A DNA stretch of 7,762 nucleotides from a virus (lineage: Duplodnaviria > Heunggongvirae > Uroviricota > Caudoviricetes). Numbering within the stretch: position 1 is the stretch's first letter; each line of letters begins with the position of its first letter. Below are positions 1 through 7,641 of this stretch, piece after piece. The stretch is from the IMG/VR virus record IMGVR_UViG_3300011952_000013. The stretch is one strand, 5' to 3'. The position numbers and the translations under genes were made by a program. The notes beneath the pieces are model-generated. The model did not search any database, had not been told where the DNA came from, and saw only the letters and a list, made by a program, of their open reading frames with translations.

Positions 1-1539
1 GATGAAATTGCTGCCATGCTGGCGGATGAGACCTGGATGTCCGGTGCCGAATGTCTGGCACATGGATTTGCTGATCAGGTGACGCCAGCCGTTAAGGCAA
101 TGGCATGTATTCAGTCAAAACGTACAGAGGAATTTAAAAAGATGCCGGAATCCATTCGAAACATGATTACTCCGCCACGCAACAGTGCTCCACGCGTACA
201 GGATGATGAACCTGCAGCCTCCCGGACGCCAGTGCAGGCAGCAGCACCCGTGGTGGATGAAAACAGTATCCGTGCGCAGGTACTGGCAGAGCAAAAAGCG
301 CGTGTAAACGGTATTAATGATCTGTTTGCCATGTTTGGCGGGCGTTATCAGACGCTGCAGGCTCAGTGTCTTGCCGATCCTGAGTGTTCGCTGGAGCAGG
401 TCCGCGAAAAGCTGTTGAACGAGATGGGGCGCGAGTCCACGCCATCCAATAAAAATACACCGGCTCATATTTATGCTGGTAACGGTGATTTTGTGGGGGA
501 CGGGATCCGCCAGGCGCTGATGGCGCGTGCCGGATTTGAAAAAACCGAACGTGATAATGTCTACAACGGGATGACCCTGCGTGAATATGCCCGTATGTCA
601 CTGACTGAACGGGGTATTGGGGTTTCCGGTTATAACCCGATGCAGATGGTCGGTGCGGCGTTCACCCACAGTACGTCTGACTTCGGTAATATTCTGCTGG
701 ATGTTGCGAACAAAGCCATTCTGCAGGGCTGGGAAGATGCTCCTGAAACCTATGAACAATGGACGCGGAAAGGTCAGTTGTCTGATTTTAAAATTGCCCA
801 TCGTGTGGGTATGGGGGGCTTCAGTGCTCTGCGTCAGGTGCGTGAAGGGGCGGAATATAAATACGTCACCACCGGAGATAAACAGGCCACTATTGCACTG
901 GCGACCTATGGCGAGCTGTTCAGTATCACCCGTCAGGCCATTATCAATGATGATCTGAATATGCTGACCGATGTCCCGATGAAACTGGGCCGTGCGGCGA
1001 AATCCACTATTGCCGATCTGGTTTATGCCATTCTGACGTCTAACCCGAAAATCTCCACAGATAATGTAAGTCTGTTCGATAAAGCGAAACATGCAAACGT
1101 ACTGGAGAGCGCTGCAATGGACGTGGCATCGCTGGATAAAGCCCGCCAGTTGATGCGCGTTCAGAAAGAGGGGGAGCGTCATCTGAATATTCGTCCTGCG
1201 TTCGTACTGGTACCGACGGCGATGGAGTCTGTTGCTAACCAGGTCATTCGCTCCTCAAGTGTCAAGGGGGCTGACATTAACGCCGGTATTATTAACCCGG
1301 TGAAAGATTTTGCGACCGTTATTGCAGAGCCTCGTCTTGATGATAACAGCCAGACCACCTTCTACCTGGCTGCGTCAAAAGGCTCCGATACGATTGAAGT
1401 GGCTTATCTCAACGGTGTGGATACGCCATATATTGATCAGATGGAGGGCTTCAGTGTGGATGGCGTGACAACGAAAGTGCGTATTGACGCCGGTGTCGCG
1501 CCAGTTGATCACCGCGGTCTGGTGAAATGTACGGCGTAA
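1..1539 (+). CDS. 5'-truncated fusion ORF: C-terminal end of a ClpP/S49-like prohead protease, a Pro/Ala-rich linker, then an HK97-fold major capsid protein. The true start lies upstream of the window.
   Basis: Frame 1 is open from nt 1 (no stop before 1537-1539 TAA), so the ATG at 16 is not the real start. The first ~25 residues (DEIAAMLADETWMSGAECLAHGFADQV) resemble the C-terminal helix region of ClpP-family proteases. Residues ~50-80 are low-complexity P/A/Q-rich. The remaining ~400 aa have the size and character of a phage major capsid protein. The gene is followed by a terminator hairpin, and its position is immediately upstream of the head-tail joining genes. Confidence 0.8.
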   Translation, partial: DEIAAMLADETWMSGAECLAHGFADQVTPAVKAMACIQSKRTEEFKKMPESIRNMITPPRNSAPRVQDDEPAASRTPVQAAAPVVDENSIRAQVLAEQKARVNGINDLFAMFGGRYQTLQAQCLADPECSLEQVREKLLNEMGRESTPSNKNTPAHIYAGNGDFVGDGIRQALMARAGFEKTERDNVYNGMTLREYARMSLTERGIGVSGYNPMQMVGAAFTHSTSDFGNILLDVANKAILQGWEDAPETYEQWTRKGQLSDFKIAHRVGMGGFSALRQVREGAEYKYVTTGDKQATIALATYGELFSITRQAIINDDLNMLTDVPMKLGRAAKSTIADLVYAILTSNPKISTDNVSLFDKAKHANVLESAAMDVASLDKARQLMRVQKEGERHLNIRPAFVLVPTAMESVANQVIRSSSVKGADINAGIINPVKDFATVIAEPRLDDNSQTTFYLAASKGSDTIEVAYLNGVDTPYIDQMEGFSVDGVTTKVRIDAGVAPVDHRGLVKCTA

Positions 1540-1562: not shown

Positions 1563-1582
1563 GGCCCGTAAGGGCTTTTTTT
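1563..1582 (+). terminator. Rho-independent terminator-like hairpin after the capsid gene: short GC stem with a GTAA (GNRA) tetraloop followed by a run of seven T.
   Basis: GCCC(1564-1567) GTAA GGGC(1572-1575), possibly extended by a G1563.T1576 wobble pair, then TTTTTTT at 1576-1582. Lies 24 nt after the capsid stop codon. Confidence 0.6.
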
Positions 1583-1593
1583 GTACCTGAAAT

Positions 1594-1625: not shown

Positions 1626-1949
1626 ATGGCAAAGAATTTTGTAGAAGAAGGAAAAACGGTGGCGATTGTTGCCAGTGCAGCCATCAGCAGCGGAGAGCTG
1701 GTGCAGGTGGGTGATGTTTTTGCGGTGGCGCTGACCGATATTCCACAGGGTGAAACAGGCGACGGCATGACCGAAGGTGTGTTTATGCTGCCTAAGCTGA
1801 AAACGGATGACATGAAAACGGGTAAGAAGGTTTATCTGAAGTCCGGAAAAGTTCAGCTGACTAACAGCGGCTCTGATCCGCTGGTCGGGGTTGTCTGGGC
1901 AGATGCCGGAACCAGTGCAGAAGAAGTGCCGGTAAAACTCAATGTCTGA
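1626..1949 (+). CDS. Small (107 aa) phage head-associated protein, DUF2190-like. Function unknown; possibly a capsid decoration/cement or head-completion protein.
   Basis: ATG at 1626 is preceded by GGAGA at 5-nt spacing. The upstream ATG at 1581 offered by the ORF track lies inside the terminator T-tract and has no RBS. The N-terminus MAKNFVEEGKT and the Gly-rich beta-like composition match my recollection of DUF2190 family members. It sits between the capsid and head-tail joining genes. Its stop overlaps the next start (ATGTCTGA). Confidence 0.6.
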   Translation: MAKNFVEEGKTVAIVASAAISSGELVQVGDVFAVALTDIPQGETGDGMTEGVFMLPKLKTDDMKTGKKVYLKSGKVQLTNSGSDPLVGVVWADAGTSAEEVPVKLNV

Positions 1950-2228: not shown

Positions 2229-2819
2229 ATGAAGGGGCTTGAGAATGCCATCCGCAATCTGAACAGCCTTGATACCCGTATGGTGCCACAGGCCAGCGCA
2301 TGGGCGATAAACCGTGTGGCACAGAAAGCGGTCTCGGTTGCCACCCGGCAGGTTGCCGGGAATACCGTTGCGGGAGATAACCAGGTGAAAGGGATCCCCC
2401 TGAAACTGGTACGTCAGCGTGTCCGGGTGTTTAAAGCCAGTCCGTCAGGAAAAATGACGGCCAGGATCCGCGTTAACCGGGGCAATCTGCCCGCCATCAA
2501 ACTGAACACAACACGGCGGCGTGCTGGTGAAGGACTGAGAGTGGGAAAATACTTTTTCCGGGGGGCATTTGTTCAGCAACTGGCGAATGGCCGCTGGCAT
2601 GTTCTGAGGCGTCTTCCTGAAGCGCGTTTTGCAACAGGGCATGACCATCAGGGCAGGCCAAGAAAAAATCGTCTTCCTGTGGAGGTAGTGAAAATCCCGC
2701 TGTCCGGACCGCTGACACAGGCATTTGAAGATGCCCGCGACCACATCATTGCTGCGGAAATGCCGAAACAGCTGGGGTATGCACTGAAACAACAACTGAG
2801 GTTATGGCTGACCCGATGA
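2229..2819 (+). CDS. Z: Minor tail / tail completion protein, lambda gpZ-like (196 aa).
   Basis: RBS AAGAGGTG at 2217-2224, then ATG at 2229. Size matches lambda Z (~192 aa) and the N-terminus MKGLENAIRNLNSL is Z-like. Its stop overlaps the U start (ATGA at 2816-2819). Synteny FII-Z-U-V. Confidence 0.75.
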   Translation: MKGLENAIRNLNSLDTRMVPQASAWAINRVAQKAVSVATRQVAGNTVAGDNQVKGIPLKLVRQRVRVFKASPSGKMTARIRVNRGNLPAIKLNTTRRRAGEGLRVGKYFFRGAFVQQLANGRWHVLRRLPEARFATGHDHQGRPRKNRLPVEVVKIPLSGPLTQAFEDARDHIIAAEMPKQLGYALKQQLRLWLTR

Positions 2820-3219
2820 ACCGACATACACAAATCCGCCAGGTCGTACTGGCACGCCTTCGGGAACAGTGTGGAGACAGCGCCACGTTTTTTGACGGGC
2901 TTCCGGCATTTATTGATGCGCANNNNNNNNNNCTGCCGTGGCGGTGTGGCTGAGTGATGCTCAGTACACCGGAAAAATGACGGATGAAGATGACTGGCAG
3001 GCTGTTCTGCATATTGCCGTCTTCATCCGGGCACAGGCACCGGATTCAGAGCTGGATATGTGGATGGAGAGCACCATTTTCCCGGCCCTGAATGATGTAC
3101 CGGCACTTTCCGGACTCATCGACACCCTGAACCCACTCGGTTTTAACTATCAACGTGATAATGAGATGGCCACCTGGGCGATGGCGGAAATCACGTACCA
3201 GATCACGTACACGAATTAA
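2816..3219 (+). CDS. U: Tail terminator protein, lambda gpU-like. The reading frame is interrupted by a 10-N run (2923-2932), across which the frame appears to change (frame 2 before, frame 1 after).
   Basis: ATG at 2816 gives MNRHTQIRQVVLARLREQCGDSATFFDGLPAFIDA. After the N-run, frame 1 gives AVWLSDAQYTGKMTDEDDWQAVLHIAVFIRAQAPDSELDMWMESTIFPALNDVPALSGLIDTLNPLGFNYQRDNEMATWAMAEITYQITYTN. Both halves are collinear with remembered lambda gpU (ATFFDGRP..., AVAVYLTGAEYTG..., ELHIEVF...PDSELDAWMES...). Stop TAA at 3217-3219. Confidence 0.8.
2923..2932. other. Run of 10 N (assembly gap or masked bases) inside the gpU-like gene.
   Basis: Literal n characters in the sequence. Confidence 1.
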
Positions 3220-3229
3220 GGAGGTGGTA

Positions 3230-3973
3230 ATGACCACACCAAATCCACTGGCAAAGACGAAAGGTGCGGGGACGACGTTCTGGATGTATACCGGCAACGG
3301 CGATGCGTTTGCGAACCCTTTGTCGGACACTGACTGGCTGCGTCTTGCGATGGTGAAGGATCTGCAACCTGGCGAAATGACCGCTGATGCAGAAGATGAC
3401 ACTTATCTCGATGATGAAGATGCAGACTGGAAAACGACAACCCAGGGGCAGAAATCCGTTGGTGATACTTCGGCGACGCTGGCCTGGCGTCCGGGTGACA
3501 GCGGGCAGAAAAAACTGGTTCAGTTGTTCGACTCCGGTGAAGTCTGCGCGTTTCGTATCAAATATCCCAACGGCACTGTTGATGTTTTCCGTGGCTGGCT
3601 GAGCTCACTGGGTAAAACCATTGCCTCAAAAGACGTGATGACCCGCACTGTGAAAATCAGCGGTGTGGGGCGTCCGTATCTGGCAGAGGAAGGCACTGAA
3701 ACCGTGAGCGTTACCGGGCTGACAGTATCACCGGCGTCTGCCAGTGTAAAAGTGGGAGCAACCACCACGCTGACCTTTACAGTAAAACCTGACGGAGCCA
3801 GTGACAAAGCGATCAGTGTGCATTCGTCAGATCCACAGACTGCCACGGTTACCCTGAACGGACTTGTGGCCACGGTAAAAGGCGTGAAGCAGGGCAGTGT
3901 CAGCATTGTGGGCATGACCGCTGACGGGAATTTTGTGGCTGTGGCTGCGGTGACTGTCAGCGCCGCAGGTTAA
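3230..3973 (+). CDS. V: Major tail tube protein, lambda gpV-like (247 aa), with a C-terminal Ig-like (Big_2-type) domain.
   Basis: Strong RBS AGGAGG (3219-3224) 5 nt upstream of ATG 3230; the ORF-track start at 3155 has no RBS and overlaps U. The translation MTTPNPLAKTKGAGTTFWMYTGNGDAFANPLSD...YLDDEDADW...NGTVDVFRGW is closely collinear with remembered lambda gpV. The C-terminal ~90 aa are T/V/S/A-rich in a beta-sandwich-like pattern typical of Big_2 domains. Confidence 0.93.
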   Translation: MTTPNPLAKTKGAGTTFWMYTGNGDAFANPLSDTDWLRLAMVKDLQPGEMTADAEDDTYLDDEDADWKTTTQGQKSVGDTSATLAWRPGDSGQKKLVQLFDSGEVCAFRIKYPNGTVDVFRGWLSSLGKTIASKDVMTRTVKISGVGRPYLAEEGTETVSVTGLTVSPASASVKVGATTTLTFTVKPDGASDKAISVHSSDPQTATVTLNGLVATVKGVKQGSVSIVGMTADGNFVAVAAVTVSAAG

Positions 3974-3993
3974 CAGGACGATACTCATCATTT

Positions 3994-4017
3994 GCCCCGG
4001 TTATCCGGGGCTTTTTT
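3994..4017 (+). terminator. Rho-independent terminator-like hairpin between the major tail gene and the chaperone gene.
   Basis: GCCCCGG (3994-4000), TTAT loop, CCGGGGC (4005-4011), then TTTTTT (4012-4017). Begins 21 nt after the V stop codon. Confidence 0.7.
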
Positions 4018-4033
4018 GCAGGTGGAGAACATG

Positions 4034-4420
4034 ATGTTTCTGAAACAGGGCACGTTTAATTATGAAAAACAGTCCGTGGTGCTCAGTGAGCTGTCCGGGC
4101 TGCAGAGAATTGAATATCTGGCGTTTGTTCAGCAGCGAACGGCAAAGTTTGATGCCGGTGAGGGAGAACTGCCGGAGGCTGAACGACAGATTGCTTTTCT
4201 GCGGATGGGGATGGATATCAATGCCTGGCTGGTTTCCCGCTCACTGTGGAATGCGGATCAGTCTAAGGATGTAGAGACGCTTTGCGCATCCGTTATTACA
4301 ACATGGTCGTATGATGCCCTGGGTGCGGGGGCGGAGATGGTTCTGTCGCTGAGCGGTATGGGGGCCATTGATAATGCCGGGGGTGATGAGCATGAGTCGC
4401 TGACGCCGGAAAAGTCCTGA
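4034..4420 (+). CDS. G: Tail assembly chaperone, lambda gpG-like (128 aa if started at 4034; ATG at 4031 is an alternative).
   Basis: GGTGGAG (4021-4027) precedes ATG 4031/4034. The product from 4034, MFLKQGTFNYEKQSVVLSELSGLQRIEYLAF, is collinear with remembered lambda gpG (MFLK...TLSELSALQRIEHLA). The ORF-track start at 3992 lies inside the terminator stem. Stop TGA at 4418-4420. Confidence 0.85.
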   Translation: MFLKQGTFNYEKQSVVLSELSGLQRIEYLAFVQQRTAKFDAGEGELPEAERQIAFLRMGMDINAWLVSRSLWNADQSKDVETLCASVITTWSYDALGAGAEMVLSLSGMGAIDNAGGDEHESLTPEKS

Positions 4421-4710
4421 CGCGGGAAATGCAGTTTGTCATGCGGCTTGCCCGGGAGTTCCGACGGGCAGACTGGCGGCGGATGCTGTCGGAAATGTCG
4501 GCCACTGAGCTTGGTGAGTGGGGCGATTATTTCCGGATGCAGAGCTTCAGTGATGTGTGGATGGATGCGCAGTTTGCCTCGCTGAAGGCATTGATCGTGA
4601 GAATGGTGTCCGGCAGCAGTGATGCTGCGGTGGCTGATTTCAGCCTTTTACCGGAAGAGAACGGGATACCGGAGCGAACGGACGANNNNNNNNNNCGGAC
4701 GAAGAACTGA
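4396..4710 (+). CDS. T: gpT-like segment of the tail assembly chaperone, in the -1 frame relative to G. Probably expressed only as a G-T fusion by programmed -1 ribosomal frameshifting near 4408-4414. Contains a 10-N run (4686-4695), so the 3' end is uncertain.
   Basis: Frame 1 is open from 4396 (upstream in-frame TGA at 4393-4395) and overlaps the last 7 codons of G. An A-rich slippery-like heptamer G_GAA_AAG sits at 4408-4414. Position between G and the tape measure gene matches the conserved G/GT arrangement of lambda-like tail operons. The ATG at 4429 has no convincing RBS. Confidence 0.65.
   Translation, partial: VADAGKVLTREMQFVMRLAREFRRADWRRMLSEMSATELGEWGDYFRMQSFSDVWMDAQFASLKALIVRMVSGSSDAAVADFSLLPEENGIPERTDXXXXRTKN
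4686..4695. other. Run of 10 N near the 3' end of the gpT-like frame, flanked on both sides by the heptamer CGGACGA.
   Basis: Literal n characters; sequence reads aaCGGACGA-N10-CGGACGAag. Confidence 1.
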
Positions 4711-4746
4711 TGCATCTTGGGGAAGGGATTTCCGGAGGCGGGCGTT

Positions 4747-7641
4747 ATGGACCAGATAGCCAACCTGGTCATTGATTTGGGGATTGATGCGGCAGAGTTT
4801 AAAAATGAAATCCCCCGTATCAAAAACCTTCTGAATGGTGCAGCCAGCGATGCAGAACGGTCTTCTGCCCGTATGCAGCGTTTTATGGAGCGTCAGACTC
4901 AGGCCGCCCGGCAGACAACGCAGGCGGCGTCTTCGGCTGCAACAGCCGCATCCGTCCATGCGCAGACAGTGGAGAAGAACGCACAGGCTCATGAACGCAT
5001 GGCCCGCGAGGTGGAGAAAACCCGCCAGCGCATGGAGGCGCTGAGCCAGAAAATGCGCGAGGAACAGGCGCAGGCCATGGCTCTGGCGGAGGCTCAGGAT
5101 AAAGCGGCTGCTGCGTTTTATCGTCAGATTGACAGTGTGAAACAGGCCAGTGCGGGGCTGCAGGAATTACAGCGTATTCAGCAGCAGATCCGACAGGCCA
5201 GAAACAGTGGCGGGATTGGTCAGCAGGATTATCTGGCGCTGATTTCTGAGGTTACGGCGAAAACCCGTGTTCTTACACAGGCTGAGGAAGAGGCTACCCG
5301 ACAGAAAGTGGCGTTTATCCGTCAGCTTAAAGAGCAGGCAACCCGCCAGAATCTTTCTTCTTCTGAGTTGCTTCGTGCTAAGGCTGCCCAGCTGGGGGTA
5401 AGCAGTGCTGCAGAAGTGTATATCCNNNNNNNNNNACCGAAAGGCAGGATGCTTGGCGGGGTTATTGGCGGTATTGCCGCGGCTGTCTATGGTCTGGGTA
5501 AAGCCTGGTATGACGGTCAGAAGGAGGGGGAAGAATTTAACCGCCAGCTGTCGCTGACGGGGCATTATGCCGGAGTCACTGCCGGGCAGCTGTGGACGCT
5601 CAGTCGTGCTATTTCCGGGAATGGTATCACGCAACATGCTGCAGCCGGTGCGCTGGCTCAGGTGGTGGGTAGTGGTGCATTTCGTGGAAACGATATCGGT
5701 ATGGTGGCGAGAGCTGCCGCACAGATGGAGCGATCGGTTGGCCAGTCGATCAGCGATACCATAAATCAGTTTAAGCGGCTGAAGGATGATCCTGTAAATG
5801 CCGCGAAGGCTCTGGACAATGAGCTGCATTTTCTTACTGCCACTCAGCTTGAGCAGATACGTGTCCTTGGGGATCAGGGACGGTCCAGTGATGCTGCACG
5901 GATAGCCATGTCTGCACTGGCAGAGGAAACCGGTCGGCGTACTGCGGATATTGATAATAACCTCAATGCGCTTGGTAGTACGCTGAAGTATCTGTCTGAT
6001 TTGTGGAGTCGTTTCTGGGATGCGGCCATGAATATTGGTCGTGAAGACTCGCTGGATGAACAAATTGCCGCTTTACAGGAGAAAGTGTCGCGGGCGAAAA
6101 GACTCCCCTGGACGGCATCATCTTCTCAGGTTGAATACGATCAGCAGCGTCTTAACGATCTTCAGGAGAAAAAACGCCAGAAGGATTTGCAGGATGCAAA
6201 AGAGCAGGCAGAGCGGAATTATCAGGAGCAACAGAAACGCCGTAATGCTGAAAATGCTGCACTGAACCGGATGAATGAAACTGAAGCAGCACGGCATCAG
6301 CGTGAAATTGCGCGTATTAATGCCATGCAGTACGCCGATCAGGCTGTCAGGGATGCGGCGATACAACGTGAAAATGAACGTTACGAGAAAGCCCTGGCAT
6401 CCGGTAAGAAAAAAACACGCGAAACCCGTAATGATGAGGCCACCCGCTTATTGCTGCAGTACAGTCAGCAACAGGCACAGGTGGAAGGGCAGATTGCTGC
6501 TGCAAGACAGTCAGCAGGCATTGCCACTGACAGGATGACAGAAGCGCATAAACAGCTTCTGGCTCTGCAGCAGCGCATCAGCGACCTGGACGGGAAAAAA
6601 CTGACGGCAGATGAAAAGAGTGTGCTTGCCCGTAAAGATGAACTGATTCAGGCATTGACGCTGCTGGATGTAAAACAGCAGGAGCTTCAGAAACAGACGG
6701 CACTCAACGAGCTGAAGAAAAAAACAATTCAGCTGACCAGTCAACTGGCTGAAGAAGAGCGCGCTCAGCGTCAGCAACATGACCTGGATATCGCCACGGT
6801 GGGTATGGGTGATCAGCAGCGGCAGCGATATCAGGTACAACTGAGTCTTCGCCAGAAATACCAGCAACAGCTGGAGCAGTTGAGGCGGGATAGTGAGCAG
6901 AAAGGGACATATAACACGGATGACTACAGAAAGGCCGAGCAGGCGCTGACGGAGAGCCTGAACCGACAACTGAGTGAGAATCGCCGTTACTGGCAACAGC
7001 TTGAAATTGCTCAGGGTGACTGGAAAAACGGAGTCCTGCGTGCACTCCAGAATGTCACTGAGAATGCGGATAACACAGCCGGGACAGTGGAACAGTTGTT
7101 CACGTCTGCGTTCAGTAGCATGAGTGACTGGCTGGCGACATTCTGTACTACAGGCAAACTCAATTTCAAATCCTTCACCTCTTCTGTGCTGTCAGATATG
7201 TCCAGAATCATGGCTCAGATAGCTTTAATGAAAGCGGTAAAAGGCATTGCTTCCGCGCTGCCTTTTGATTTTGTAGCTAATGCTGATGGCGGTGTTTATC
7301 AGTCGGCTGATTTGAGTCGCTACAGTGGCACGGTGGTTAACCGTCCGACGTTTTTTGCTTTTGCAAAAGGCGCGGGTGTGATGGGGGAAGCTGGGCCTGA
7401 AGCCATTCTGCCACTGCGTCGTGGTGCTGACGGTAAGCTGGGGGTTGTGGCGGATATTGGTGGTTCAGGTATGGCGATGTTTGCCCCGCAGTACAACATC
7501 GAGATCAATAACGATGGCACGAACGGGCAGATAGGTCCGGCTGCCCTGAAGGTGGTTTATGACCTTGGGAAAAAAGCGGCAGCGGACTTTATGCAACAGC
7601 AGGCCCGTGATGGTGGTCGGTTAAGTGGAGCATATCGGTAA
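4747..7641 (+). CDS. H: Tail length tape measure protein, lambda gpH-like (964 aa), with a 10-N run at 5427-5436 inside the gene.
   Basis: GGAGG (4733-4737) precedes ATG 4747; the ORF-track start at 4717 is a TTG with no RBS. The N-terminus MDQIANLVIDLGIDAAEF resembles lambda H (MAEPVGDLVVDLSLDAARF). There is a long Q/E/R/A-rich coiled-coil-like central region. The C-terminus NNDGTNGQIGPAALKVVYD...DGG matches the conserved lambda H C-terminus. Stop overlaps the gpM start (TAATG). Confidence 0.93.
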   Translation: MDQIANLVIDLGIDAAEFKNEIPRIKNLLNGAASDAERSSARMQRFMERQTQAARQTTQAASSAATAASVHAQTVEKNAQAHERMAREVEKTRQRMEALSQKMREEQAQAMALAEAQDKAAAAFYRQIDSVKQASAGLQELQRIQQQIRQARNSGGIGQQDYLALISEVTAKTRVLTQAEEEATRQKVAFIRQLKEQATRQNLSSSELLRAKAAQLGVSSAAEVYIXXXXPKGRMLGGVIGGIAAAVYGLGKAWYDGQKEGEEFNRQLSLTGHYAGVTAGQLWTLSRAISGNGITQHAAAGALAQVVGSGAFRGNDIGMVARAAAQMERSVGQSISDTINQFKRLKDDPVNAAKALDNELHFLTATQLEQIRVLGDQGRSSDAARIAMSALAEETGRRTADIDNNLNALGSTLKYLSDLWSRFWDAAMNIGREDSLDEQIAALQEKVSRAKRLPWTASSSQVEYDQQRLNDLQEKKRQKDLQDAKEQAERNYQEQQKRRNAENAALNRMNETEAARHQREIARINAMQYADQAVRDAAIQRENERYEKALASGKKKTRETRNDEATRLLLQYSQQQAQVEGQIAAARQSAGIATDRMTEAHKQLLALQQRISDLDGKKLTADEKSVLARKDELIQALTLLDVKQQELQKQTALNELKKKTIQLTSQLAEEERAQRQQHDLDIATVGMGDQQRQRYQVQLSLRQKYQQQLEQLRRDSEQKGTYNTDDYRKAEQALTESLNRQLSENRRYWQQLEIAQGDWKNGVLRALQNVTENADNTAGTVEQLFTSAFSSMSDWLATFCTTGKLNFKSFTSSVLSDMSRIMAQIALMKAVKGIASALPFDFVANADGGVYQSADLSRYSGTVVNRPTFFAFAKGAGVMGEAGPEAILPLRRGADGKLGVVADIGGSGMAMFAPQYNIEINNDGTNGQIGPAALKVVYDLGKKAAADFMQQQARDGGRLSGAYR
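5427..5436. other. Run of 10 N inside the tape measure gene; the reading frame is preserved across it.
   Basis: Literal n characters; homology to lambda H is on the same frame on both sides. Confidence 1.

Follow-up and report, generated by a model that had tools for sequence, protein, structure and literature searches.

Does the first gene of the DNA analysed here encode a head-maturation protease and a major capsid protein as one continuous polypeptide, and where would the parts of such a polypeptide begin and end? The DNA, hereafter the window, is a stretch of 7,762 nucleotides (nt) from a tailed virus (Caudoviricetes; IMG/VR record IMGVR_UViG_3300011952_000013). The question is raised by its frame 1, which an earlier note, made from the letters alone, had described as open from the window edge through a ClpP-like C-terminal motif, a Pro/Ala-rich linker (about nt 150-260) and a complete capsid-sized domain. 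This description proved accurate to within a few tens of bases. Very probably, the window begins 140 codons into a tripartite head gene of about 652 codons, carried by an Escherichia coli lambdoid prophage of the cdtI/mEp460/Gifsy-2 head type, in which a ClpP-like serine protease is followed by a Pro/Ala linker, a helical scaffold-like segment and an HK97-fold major capsid protein. Residue numbers (aa) given below are those of the frame 1 product of the window.

One open frame from protease to capsid protein

Frame 1 contains no stop codon from nt 1 to the TAA at 1537-1539, i.e. 512 sense codons, a length which random codons would reach without a stop with a chance of only about 2e-11, (61/64)^512. 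Since the frame runs off the window edge, the gene is truncated on its 5' side. The frame 1 product scores 738.1 bits, against a curated cut-off of 475, with the NCBIfam model NF045540, named 'ClpP-like prohead protease/major capsid protein fusion protein'; aa 1-511 align to model positions 134-651 of 652 and thus about 133 leading positions of the model are missing from the window product. Placement in PHROGs gives the same picture, with aa 1-512 aligned to positions 152-667 of the 668 of phrog_133.

The missing part is present in close relatives. At the DNA level, the window shares 99% identity with phages cdtI and mEp460 and with several other E. coli phages. The complete cdtI gene (4563-6521; 1,959 nt, 652 codons) is placed between a lambda-family portal gene and a ‘head decoration’ gene, and nt 1 of the window corresponds to its codon 141. 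The 652-residue cdtI protein matches Pfam CLP_protease at aa 23-168 (E 7e-36) and Phage_capsid_4 at aa 355-649 (E 2e-54). Over its entire 7.7 kb, the window shares 99.5% identity with prophages of complete E. coli chromosomes, where NCBI's Prokaryotic Genome Annotation Pipeline (PGAP) labels a 675-residue ‘ClpP-like prohead protease/major capsid protein fusion protein’. Of the 5,426 complete E. coli genomes, 1,803 contain sequence that matches 80% or more of the window. In the 99%-identical phages and in the E. coli prophages alike, the frame stays open upstream through the full ClpP domain, the uninterrupted protease-to-capsid frame of these relatives measuring 652-675 codons. The synteny of the head module also holds: the cement gene and the connectors are found downstream in the window, and the portal gene upstream in cdtI, mEp460, Gifsy-2 and E. 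coli SWHEFF_58. Thus, the claim that protease and capsid protein share one frame is borne out by the relatives, by the CLP_protease domain of the cdtI protein and by the name that NCBI gives to the family.

We considered whether protease and capsid protein might nevertheless be two separate genes, joined in the window only by its truncation or by faulty assembly. The protease part lies almost wholly outside the window, and the source assembly has three gap runs of ten N elsewhere in it, both of which would allow such an artefact. However, positions 1-1539 align without gaps and at >99% identity to finished phage genomes and to complete E. coli chromosomes with a continuous frame of 652-675 codons, and the same architecture recurs in thousands of independent sequences. 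These alignments make an artefactual fusion extremely improbable.

The protease end and the segment that follows it

The first 27 residues of the product (DEIAAMLADETWMSGAECLAHGFADQV) match positions 139-165 of the 165 of NF045542, the NCBIfam model ‘head maturation protease, ClpP-related’, as expected of a ClpP-like C-terminal motif at the start of the frame. The counterpart of these residues in the cdtI protein (99% identical) falls on the C-terminal helix when that protein is aligned to solved ClpP structures (1y7o, 6hwm), with the conserved residues D9-E10-T11-W12 lying on the E-R-D-N-W segment of ClpP. We take E10 to be the position of the acidic residue of the ClpP catalytic triad. Only the last 27 or so residues of the protease are inside the window, the Ser and His of the triad being encoded upstream of nt 1; in the alignment to solved ClpP, the full cdtI protein retains the ClpP contexts of both, AASMA around the Ser and MIHKP around the His. 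Both motifs also occur in the full ClpP domain encoded by the 99.5%-identical E. coli prophages.

Directly after the ClpP domain, the family shares a motif, F-x-x-[F/Y]-x-x-[A/V/M/I]-P (nt 118-147, aa 40-49), the proline of which, P49, is conserved in 72 of 76 ClpP-type members. This motif might be a docking or a cleavage element.

Linker, central domain and capsid domain

The domains were delimited with an AlphaFold model computed from a diverse alignment of 110 sequences (34-99% identity to the window product; mean predicted local distance difference test score, pLDDT, 88.2); a model based on 19 close homologues (73-99% identity) had a pLDDT of 35 and was not usable. In the former, aa 1-56 (nt 1-168), which comprise the protease end and the conserved segment after it, form short helices. 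They are followed by a Pro/Ala-rich region, aa 57-85 (TPPRNSAPRVQDDEPAASRTPVQAAAPVV), within which lies the sole long low-confidence stretch of the model (aa 59-72 and 74-81; nt ~175-243). This linker is also the segment that varies most among homologues, in both length and sequence. The Pro/Ala-rich linker seen in the earlier note is real.

The central domain that comes next is well folded in the model. It consists of a three-helix unit, aa 87-144 (nt 259-432), with pLDDT mostly >94 (above 94 for aa 90-140), of a floppy and partly conserved loop, aa 145-163 (nt 433-489), and of two further helices, aa 164-177 and 193-202 (spanning aa 164-202, nt 490-606). As modelled, this helical middle part of about 125 residues sits where a delta or scaffold domain would presumably be. 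Three PHROG protease families, phrog_94, phrog_53 and phrog_3348, align to window aa 1-250, 1-168 and 1-132, respectively, and the first two are named ‘head maturation protease’; these alignments suggest that the central domain is joined to proteases also in families that are not named as capsid fusions. In addition, the central domain is similar to lambda Nu3, collinearly with the Nu3 part of lambda C and centred on an AEQKARVNGI / AAENSRIMGI helix. The signals being weak, we treat this as resemblance and not as homology.

The remainder of the product is a capsid protein. Pfam PF25209 (Phage_capsid_4) matches aa 211-509 with E 5e-55, and Mu-like_gpT is matched with E 2e-8. Foldseek retrieved 362 PDB chains at E<=0.001; the 50 of these that were listed are all encapsulin, phage-capsid or related shell proteins, HK97 Head I among them, with about 290 aligned columns. 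The best match in BFVD is a major capsid protein (template modelling score 0.81, root-mean-square deviation 3.3 Å, 291 columns). A PDB search by sequence gave one marginal match, Mu gpT-like (JBD30; E 9e-4), and found no solved structure of a close relative. Because the Foldseek alignments cover about 290 columns, the HK97-fold core corresponds to the last 300 or so residues, i.e. to a complete capsid domain. Together with the helical middle part of about 125 residues, this takes the scaffold-like part to about nt 630. The earlier note had suggested that a scaffold function might be embedded between protease and capsid at about nt 250-450: a flexible linker and a helical scaffold-like segment do lie between the two, but the latter extends over nt ~253-630. 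Profile searches, which that note had proposed as a check, found the protease-like N-terminal part (NF045542, NF045540), and structure prediction separates linker, helical domain and capsid domain (Table 1).

Table 1 Features of the head gene and of the DNA immediately downstream
Feature	Position (nt)	Strand	Evidence
C-terminal end of ClpP-like (S14) head-maturation protease domain, last helices (aa 1-28)	1..84	+	NF045542 match, ClpP structure alignment, Pfam on cdtI
Short conserved post-protease segment (aa 29-58, KAMACIQSKRTEEFKKMPESIRNMI)	85..174	+	AlphaFold model, family alignment
Disordered Pro/Ala/Gln-rich linker (aa 59-81)	175..243	+	pLDDT ~40, homologue variability
Helical central domain (aa ~85-210), presumed scaffold/delta-domain equivalent	253..630	+	AlphaFold, PHROG profiles
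HK97-fold major capsid protein domain (aa ~211-512), mixed alpha/beta, with TAA 1537-1539	631..1539	+	Pfam, Foldseek
Terminator-like hairpin GGCCC-GTAA-GGGCT, then T run, between capsid and decoration genes	1563..1583	+	Consensus scan
Head decoration/cement protein gene, 107 aa (MAKNFVEEG...)	1626..1949	+	Pfam Phage_cement_2 (DUF2190) E 2e-20; phrog_122 ‘head decoration’ E 5e-47

A different role for aa 85-210 was also weighed, in which this part is not a scaffold but an N-terminal extension of the mature capsid protein, or serves for docking of the portal or the protease, with cleavage in the Pro/Ala linker only. From aa 164 on, the domain is well conserved and confidently modelled, and although the Pfam capsid model begins at aa 211, the N-arms of HK97-fold proteins often escape Pfam models. 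Against this stand the length of the aligned HK97-fold core, about 290 residues, the reach of the PHROG protease families (two of them named for head maturation) across the central domain, at window aa 1-250, and the collinear resemblance to Nu3, weak as it is. On balance, a non-scaffold role of the middle part appears unlikely, and a scaffold-like central domain is the reading that we retain.

The fused layout in the wider family

The breadth of the family was assessed by an exhaustive HMMER search over 1.84 billion cluster representatives (clusters at 50% identity), which yielded 10,666 clusters at E<=0.001; 2,843 of them remain at the stricter E<=1e-30. Fused lengths, of 620-780 residues, predominate among the top 150 representatives. 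A ClpP-like N-domain is found in 87 of the 148 top representatives newly retrieved by this search; in others, among them P0166, P0256 and P0250, the same central and capsid module is preceded by an HK97-type S78 protease, and in one (P0226) by an S49 protease of the lambda C type. The fused layout is thus common and draws on three protease families, ClpP, S78 and S49. A second NCBIfam model, NF045541, would be expected to cover the S78-type fusions.

Short representatives (400-480 aa) were examined for a scaffold and capsid module without protease. Three of them (L012, L014 and L016) were ruled out as unfused capsid genes, their frame being open to the contig edge. A fourth, L013, was ruled out as a natural split: homologous coding sequence continues upstream in another frame, and there is a homopolymer frameshift in the ClpP part, so that this is a sequencing-error or decayed copy. 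At 2396-4386 of this contig (GCA_000755365.1, BBMQ01000056.1), two or more frameshifts, including one at an A9 homopolymer, break the ClpP-capsid gene, which apparently belongs to a rearranged prophage remnant; gene callers here list a ‘separate’ capsid gene, the first residue of which is the Met that corresponds to M48 of the window. A true separation is apparent only in the metagenomic contig L015, where a protease gene of its own seems to precede a scaffold-capsid gene of 428 aa; by eye, the tail of its protease resembles an S78-type protease.

A possible internal start at ATG 142

Head genes nested within a longer reading frame have precedents, Nu3 within C of lambda and Z within I of Mu. 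In the window, a Shine-Dalgarno-like GAGGA (127-131) precedes an in-frame ATG (142-144; M48) by 10 nt. A second start at this ATG, in the enterobacterial/Pseudomonas branch of the family, would give a scaffold-capsid protein without protease, comparable to HK97 gp5, as the main shell subunit, the full-length form being a minority protease. GAGGA or AGGAG is kept 9-10 nt before the ATG in cdtI, Gifsy-2, mEp213, CP-1639 and Pseudomonas F10, and in the last four it persists together with the ATG despite a protein identity of 54-75%. In the model, M48 lies exactly at the boundary between protease and linker, and a start there would avoid having as many proteases as shell subunits, which is a problem of stoichiometry.

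These points are offset by several others. The column is Met in only 12 of the 76 ClpP-type members (Ala in 19, Val in 14, Ile in 10), the ATG is replaced by GCG in a Vibrio homologue, and a spacing of 10 nt is, in our judgement, rather long. The neighbouring E-E-F and P49 are conserved as protein and alone fix most of GAGGAATT; with the adjacent Pro near-invariant (72 of 76) while the Met is not, the conservation around M48 looks protein-level. The ‘stand-alone’ gene that begins at this Met in L013 is part of a frameshift-ridden copy and not a clean split. M48 was thus rejected as a family-wide internal start, Met being so rare in this column, and is kept only as a lineage-specific possibility, which we regard as quite improbable. 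A literature search, outside of which the primary Gifsy-2 paper remained, found no report of a nested start in genes of the Gifsy-2 type. If true, such a start would set the ratio of protease to shell protein as lambda C/Nu3 and Mu I/Z do.

Comparison with known head systems

Among known systems, the window gene is closest to the ‘tripartite capsid gene’ of Gifsy-2 (STM1034.3n, NC_010393), with which it shares the order ClpP-like protease, central domain, capsid protein and, over the window product, 72% identity (376 of 523 aligned positions). The surroundings are shared as well: a lambda-family portal gene upstream (in the relatives of the window), a DUF2190 decoration gene downstream, and then lambda-like Z/U/V/G/T/H tail genes. 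The two differ in host and allele, in the sequence and length of the linker, and by an 8-residue insertion of Gifsy-2 in the loop at aa 145-163; no functional difference emerged from this comparison. The fused protease/coat gene of Gifsy-2 is said to have been described by Effantin et al. in 2010 (Virology). That work reportedly distinguishes three parts, an N-terminal ClpP-like protease, some 200 residues of central domain that may act in scaffolding, and a C-terminal capsid protein of HK97 size; its T=7 capsids are said to be fitted by HK97 gp5 and lambda gpD. The mature N-terminus of a Gifsy-2-type shell protein was not found in our literature search, which did not reach the primary Gifsy-2 paper.

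The fusion gene product of mEp213 is likewise 72% identical to the window product, and one report describes the head proteins of mEp213 as resembling those of Gifsy-2 (PMC12315714). In another, Gifsy-2 is listed among phages with a trimeric cement protein at the three-fold axes of the capsid (PMC8538268). Apart from the truncation of the window, no difference separates the window gene from cdtI gp05, mEp460 gp05 and mEp213 gp005, all of the NF045540 type. More distant are the members of NF045541, ‘prohead protease/major capsid protein fusion protein’, such as gp9 of Rhodobacter phage RcKemmy, which is about 31% identical over window aa 88-509. They have the same fused layout, with homologous linker, central and capsid domains, but in RcKemmy-like relatives the N-terminal protease is of the HK97-type S78 family, whereas that of the window is ClpP. 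The window product scores 404 bits with NF045541, below its cut-off of 525 bits, and its protease remnant is ClpP-type, which places it outside the S78-type fusions.

HK97 and lambda share parts of this organisation. In HK97 gp4/gp5, an HK97-fold shell protein likewise stands behind a helical N-terminal segment, which in both would presumably act as scaffold and be removed by a phage protease; however, HK97 has a separate S78 protease gene and a cross-linked shell, whereas in the window type the ClpP-like protease is covalently joined and a cement gene follows. With lambda, the window type has in common the lambda-family portal (in relatives), tail genes of the lambda kind, the joining of protease and scaffold (in lambda, Nu3 is part of C) and the logic of trimeric cementing. 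It differs in that the lambda protease is annotated as S49 and that its capsid protein E and decoration protein D each have a gene of their own and belong to other Pfam families; in addition, D precedes E in lambda, while the decoration gene of the window comes after the capsid gene.

The earlier note had set this head module apart from that of lambda on the ground that lambda uses separate C, Nu3, D and E genes. The module is indeed not lambda's: the protease is ClpP/S14 instead of S49, the capsid protein is Phage_capsid_4/Mu gpT-like instead of E, and the decoration protein is Phage_cement_2 instead of D, the window giving no Pfam match to the lambda E or D families and the protease family being CLP_protease. 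The contrast as drawn needs amending, however, since lambda C/Nu3 is itself a fusion of protease and scaffold; the real difference is that in the window type the capsid protein is joined as well.

A proposed maturation pathway

A plausible pathway can be outlined from these comparisons. On a lambda-family portal, the capsid domains would assemble into a T=7 procapsid that holds the protease and scaffold parts on its inner side. Digestion of the N-terminal part by the tethered proteases would follow and reduce the shell protein to its mature size of about 300-350 residues. Upon DNA packaging the shell would expand, and the DUF2190/Phage_cement_2 decoration protein (gene 1626-1949) would cement the expanded shell. 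The likeliest regions of cleavage would be the disordered linker (aa 59-81) together with the loop at aa 145-163, or else a position just before aa 211.

The continuous frame, the domain order, the HK97 fold, the family membership and the synteny are directly supported. Three points weigh against the reading of the gene as a whole. Firstly, the first 140 codons, with the catalytic Ser and His, lie outside the window, and the fusion in this very contig is read from relatives of 99-99.5% identity. Secondly, the central domain resembles lambda Nu3 only weakly (blastp E 0.023; hhalign, profile to sequence, E 0.0037 with a probability of 9%). Thirdly, the scaffold function, the self-cleavage and the positions of the cleavage sites are extrapolated from Gifsy-2, HK97 and lambda.

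Neighbouring genes and other features of the window

The decoration protein encoded downstream of the head gene is 60% identical to Gifsy-2 STM1034, and its gene has the same position as that of cdtI gp06. The list of open reading frames (ORFs) begins this gene at TTG 1581; the homologues cdtI gp06 and Gifsy-2 STM1034 begin at the equivalent of ATG 1626. Between capsid and decoration genes lies a terminator-like hairpin (Table 1), at the site of which the mEp460 and mEp213 records annotate a rho-independent terminator; its fold z-score is only -1.4. Through this hairpin, the late genes downstream might be transcribed less than the capsid gene.

In the head-tail connector slot, an ORF of 91 aa (1942-2217) carries conflicting names: ‘Gifsy-2, ATP-binding sugar transporter from pro-phage’ in Pfam, ‘DNA breaking-rejoining protein’ in PGAP and ‘minor tail protein’ in RefSeq phage records, which probably reflects a muddle of annotation. 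The same ORF has a weak match to Phage_attach (lambda W-like). Further downstream, at 4032-4710, a gpG-like ORF (frame 2, stop at 4418-4420) and a gpT-like ORF (frame 1, open from 4396) are arranged relative to each other as in the programmed -1 frameshift of lambda G/GT, with CCGGAAAAG just before the G stop (4406-4414) as a candidate slippery site. The two are annotated as separate genes in the cdtI, mEp460 and PGAP records.

The three runs of exactly 10 N lie at 2923-2932, 4686-4695 and 5426-5435, in the gpU-like, gpT-like and tape-measure genes, and break three ORFs of the ORF list. Compared with a 99.5%-identical E. coli chromosome, the first replaces 8 nt, the second is an insertion with a 7-nt overlap of its flanks, and the third takes the place of about 172 nt. 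A technical origin of the runs, as gaps of scaffolding or assembly, seems likelier than a biological one.

Significance

The gene type recognised here is already known: it has been studied in Gifsy-2, is named in NCBI annotation and has NCBI family models of its own. Being described and curated, it makes the finding correct but ordinary. Public phage records name the gene inconsistently, as ‘head maturation protease’, ‘Nu3’, ‘major head protein’, ‘putative protease/scaffold protein’, ‘terminase protein’ or ‘Clp protease’, and the capsid genes of Gifsy-2-type phages are for this reason easily missed. The type is widespread, at least 80% of the window being found in about a third of complete E. 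coli genomes. It also marks a mechanistic question, namely how the timing and the stoichiometry of cleavage are controlled when every capsid subunit carries a protease.

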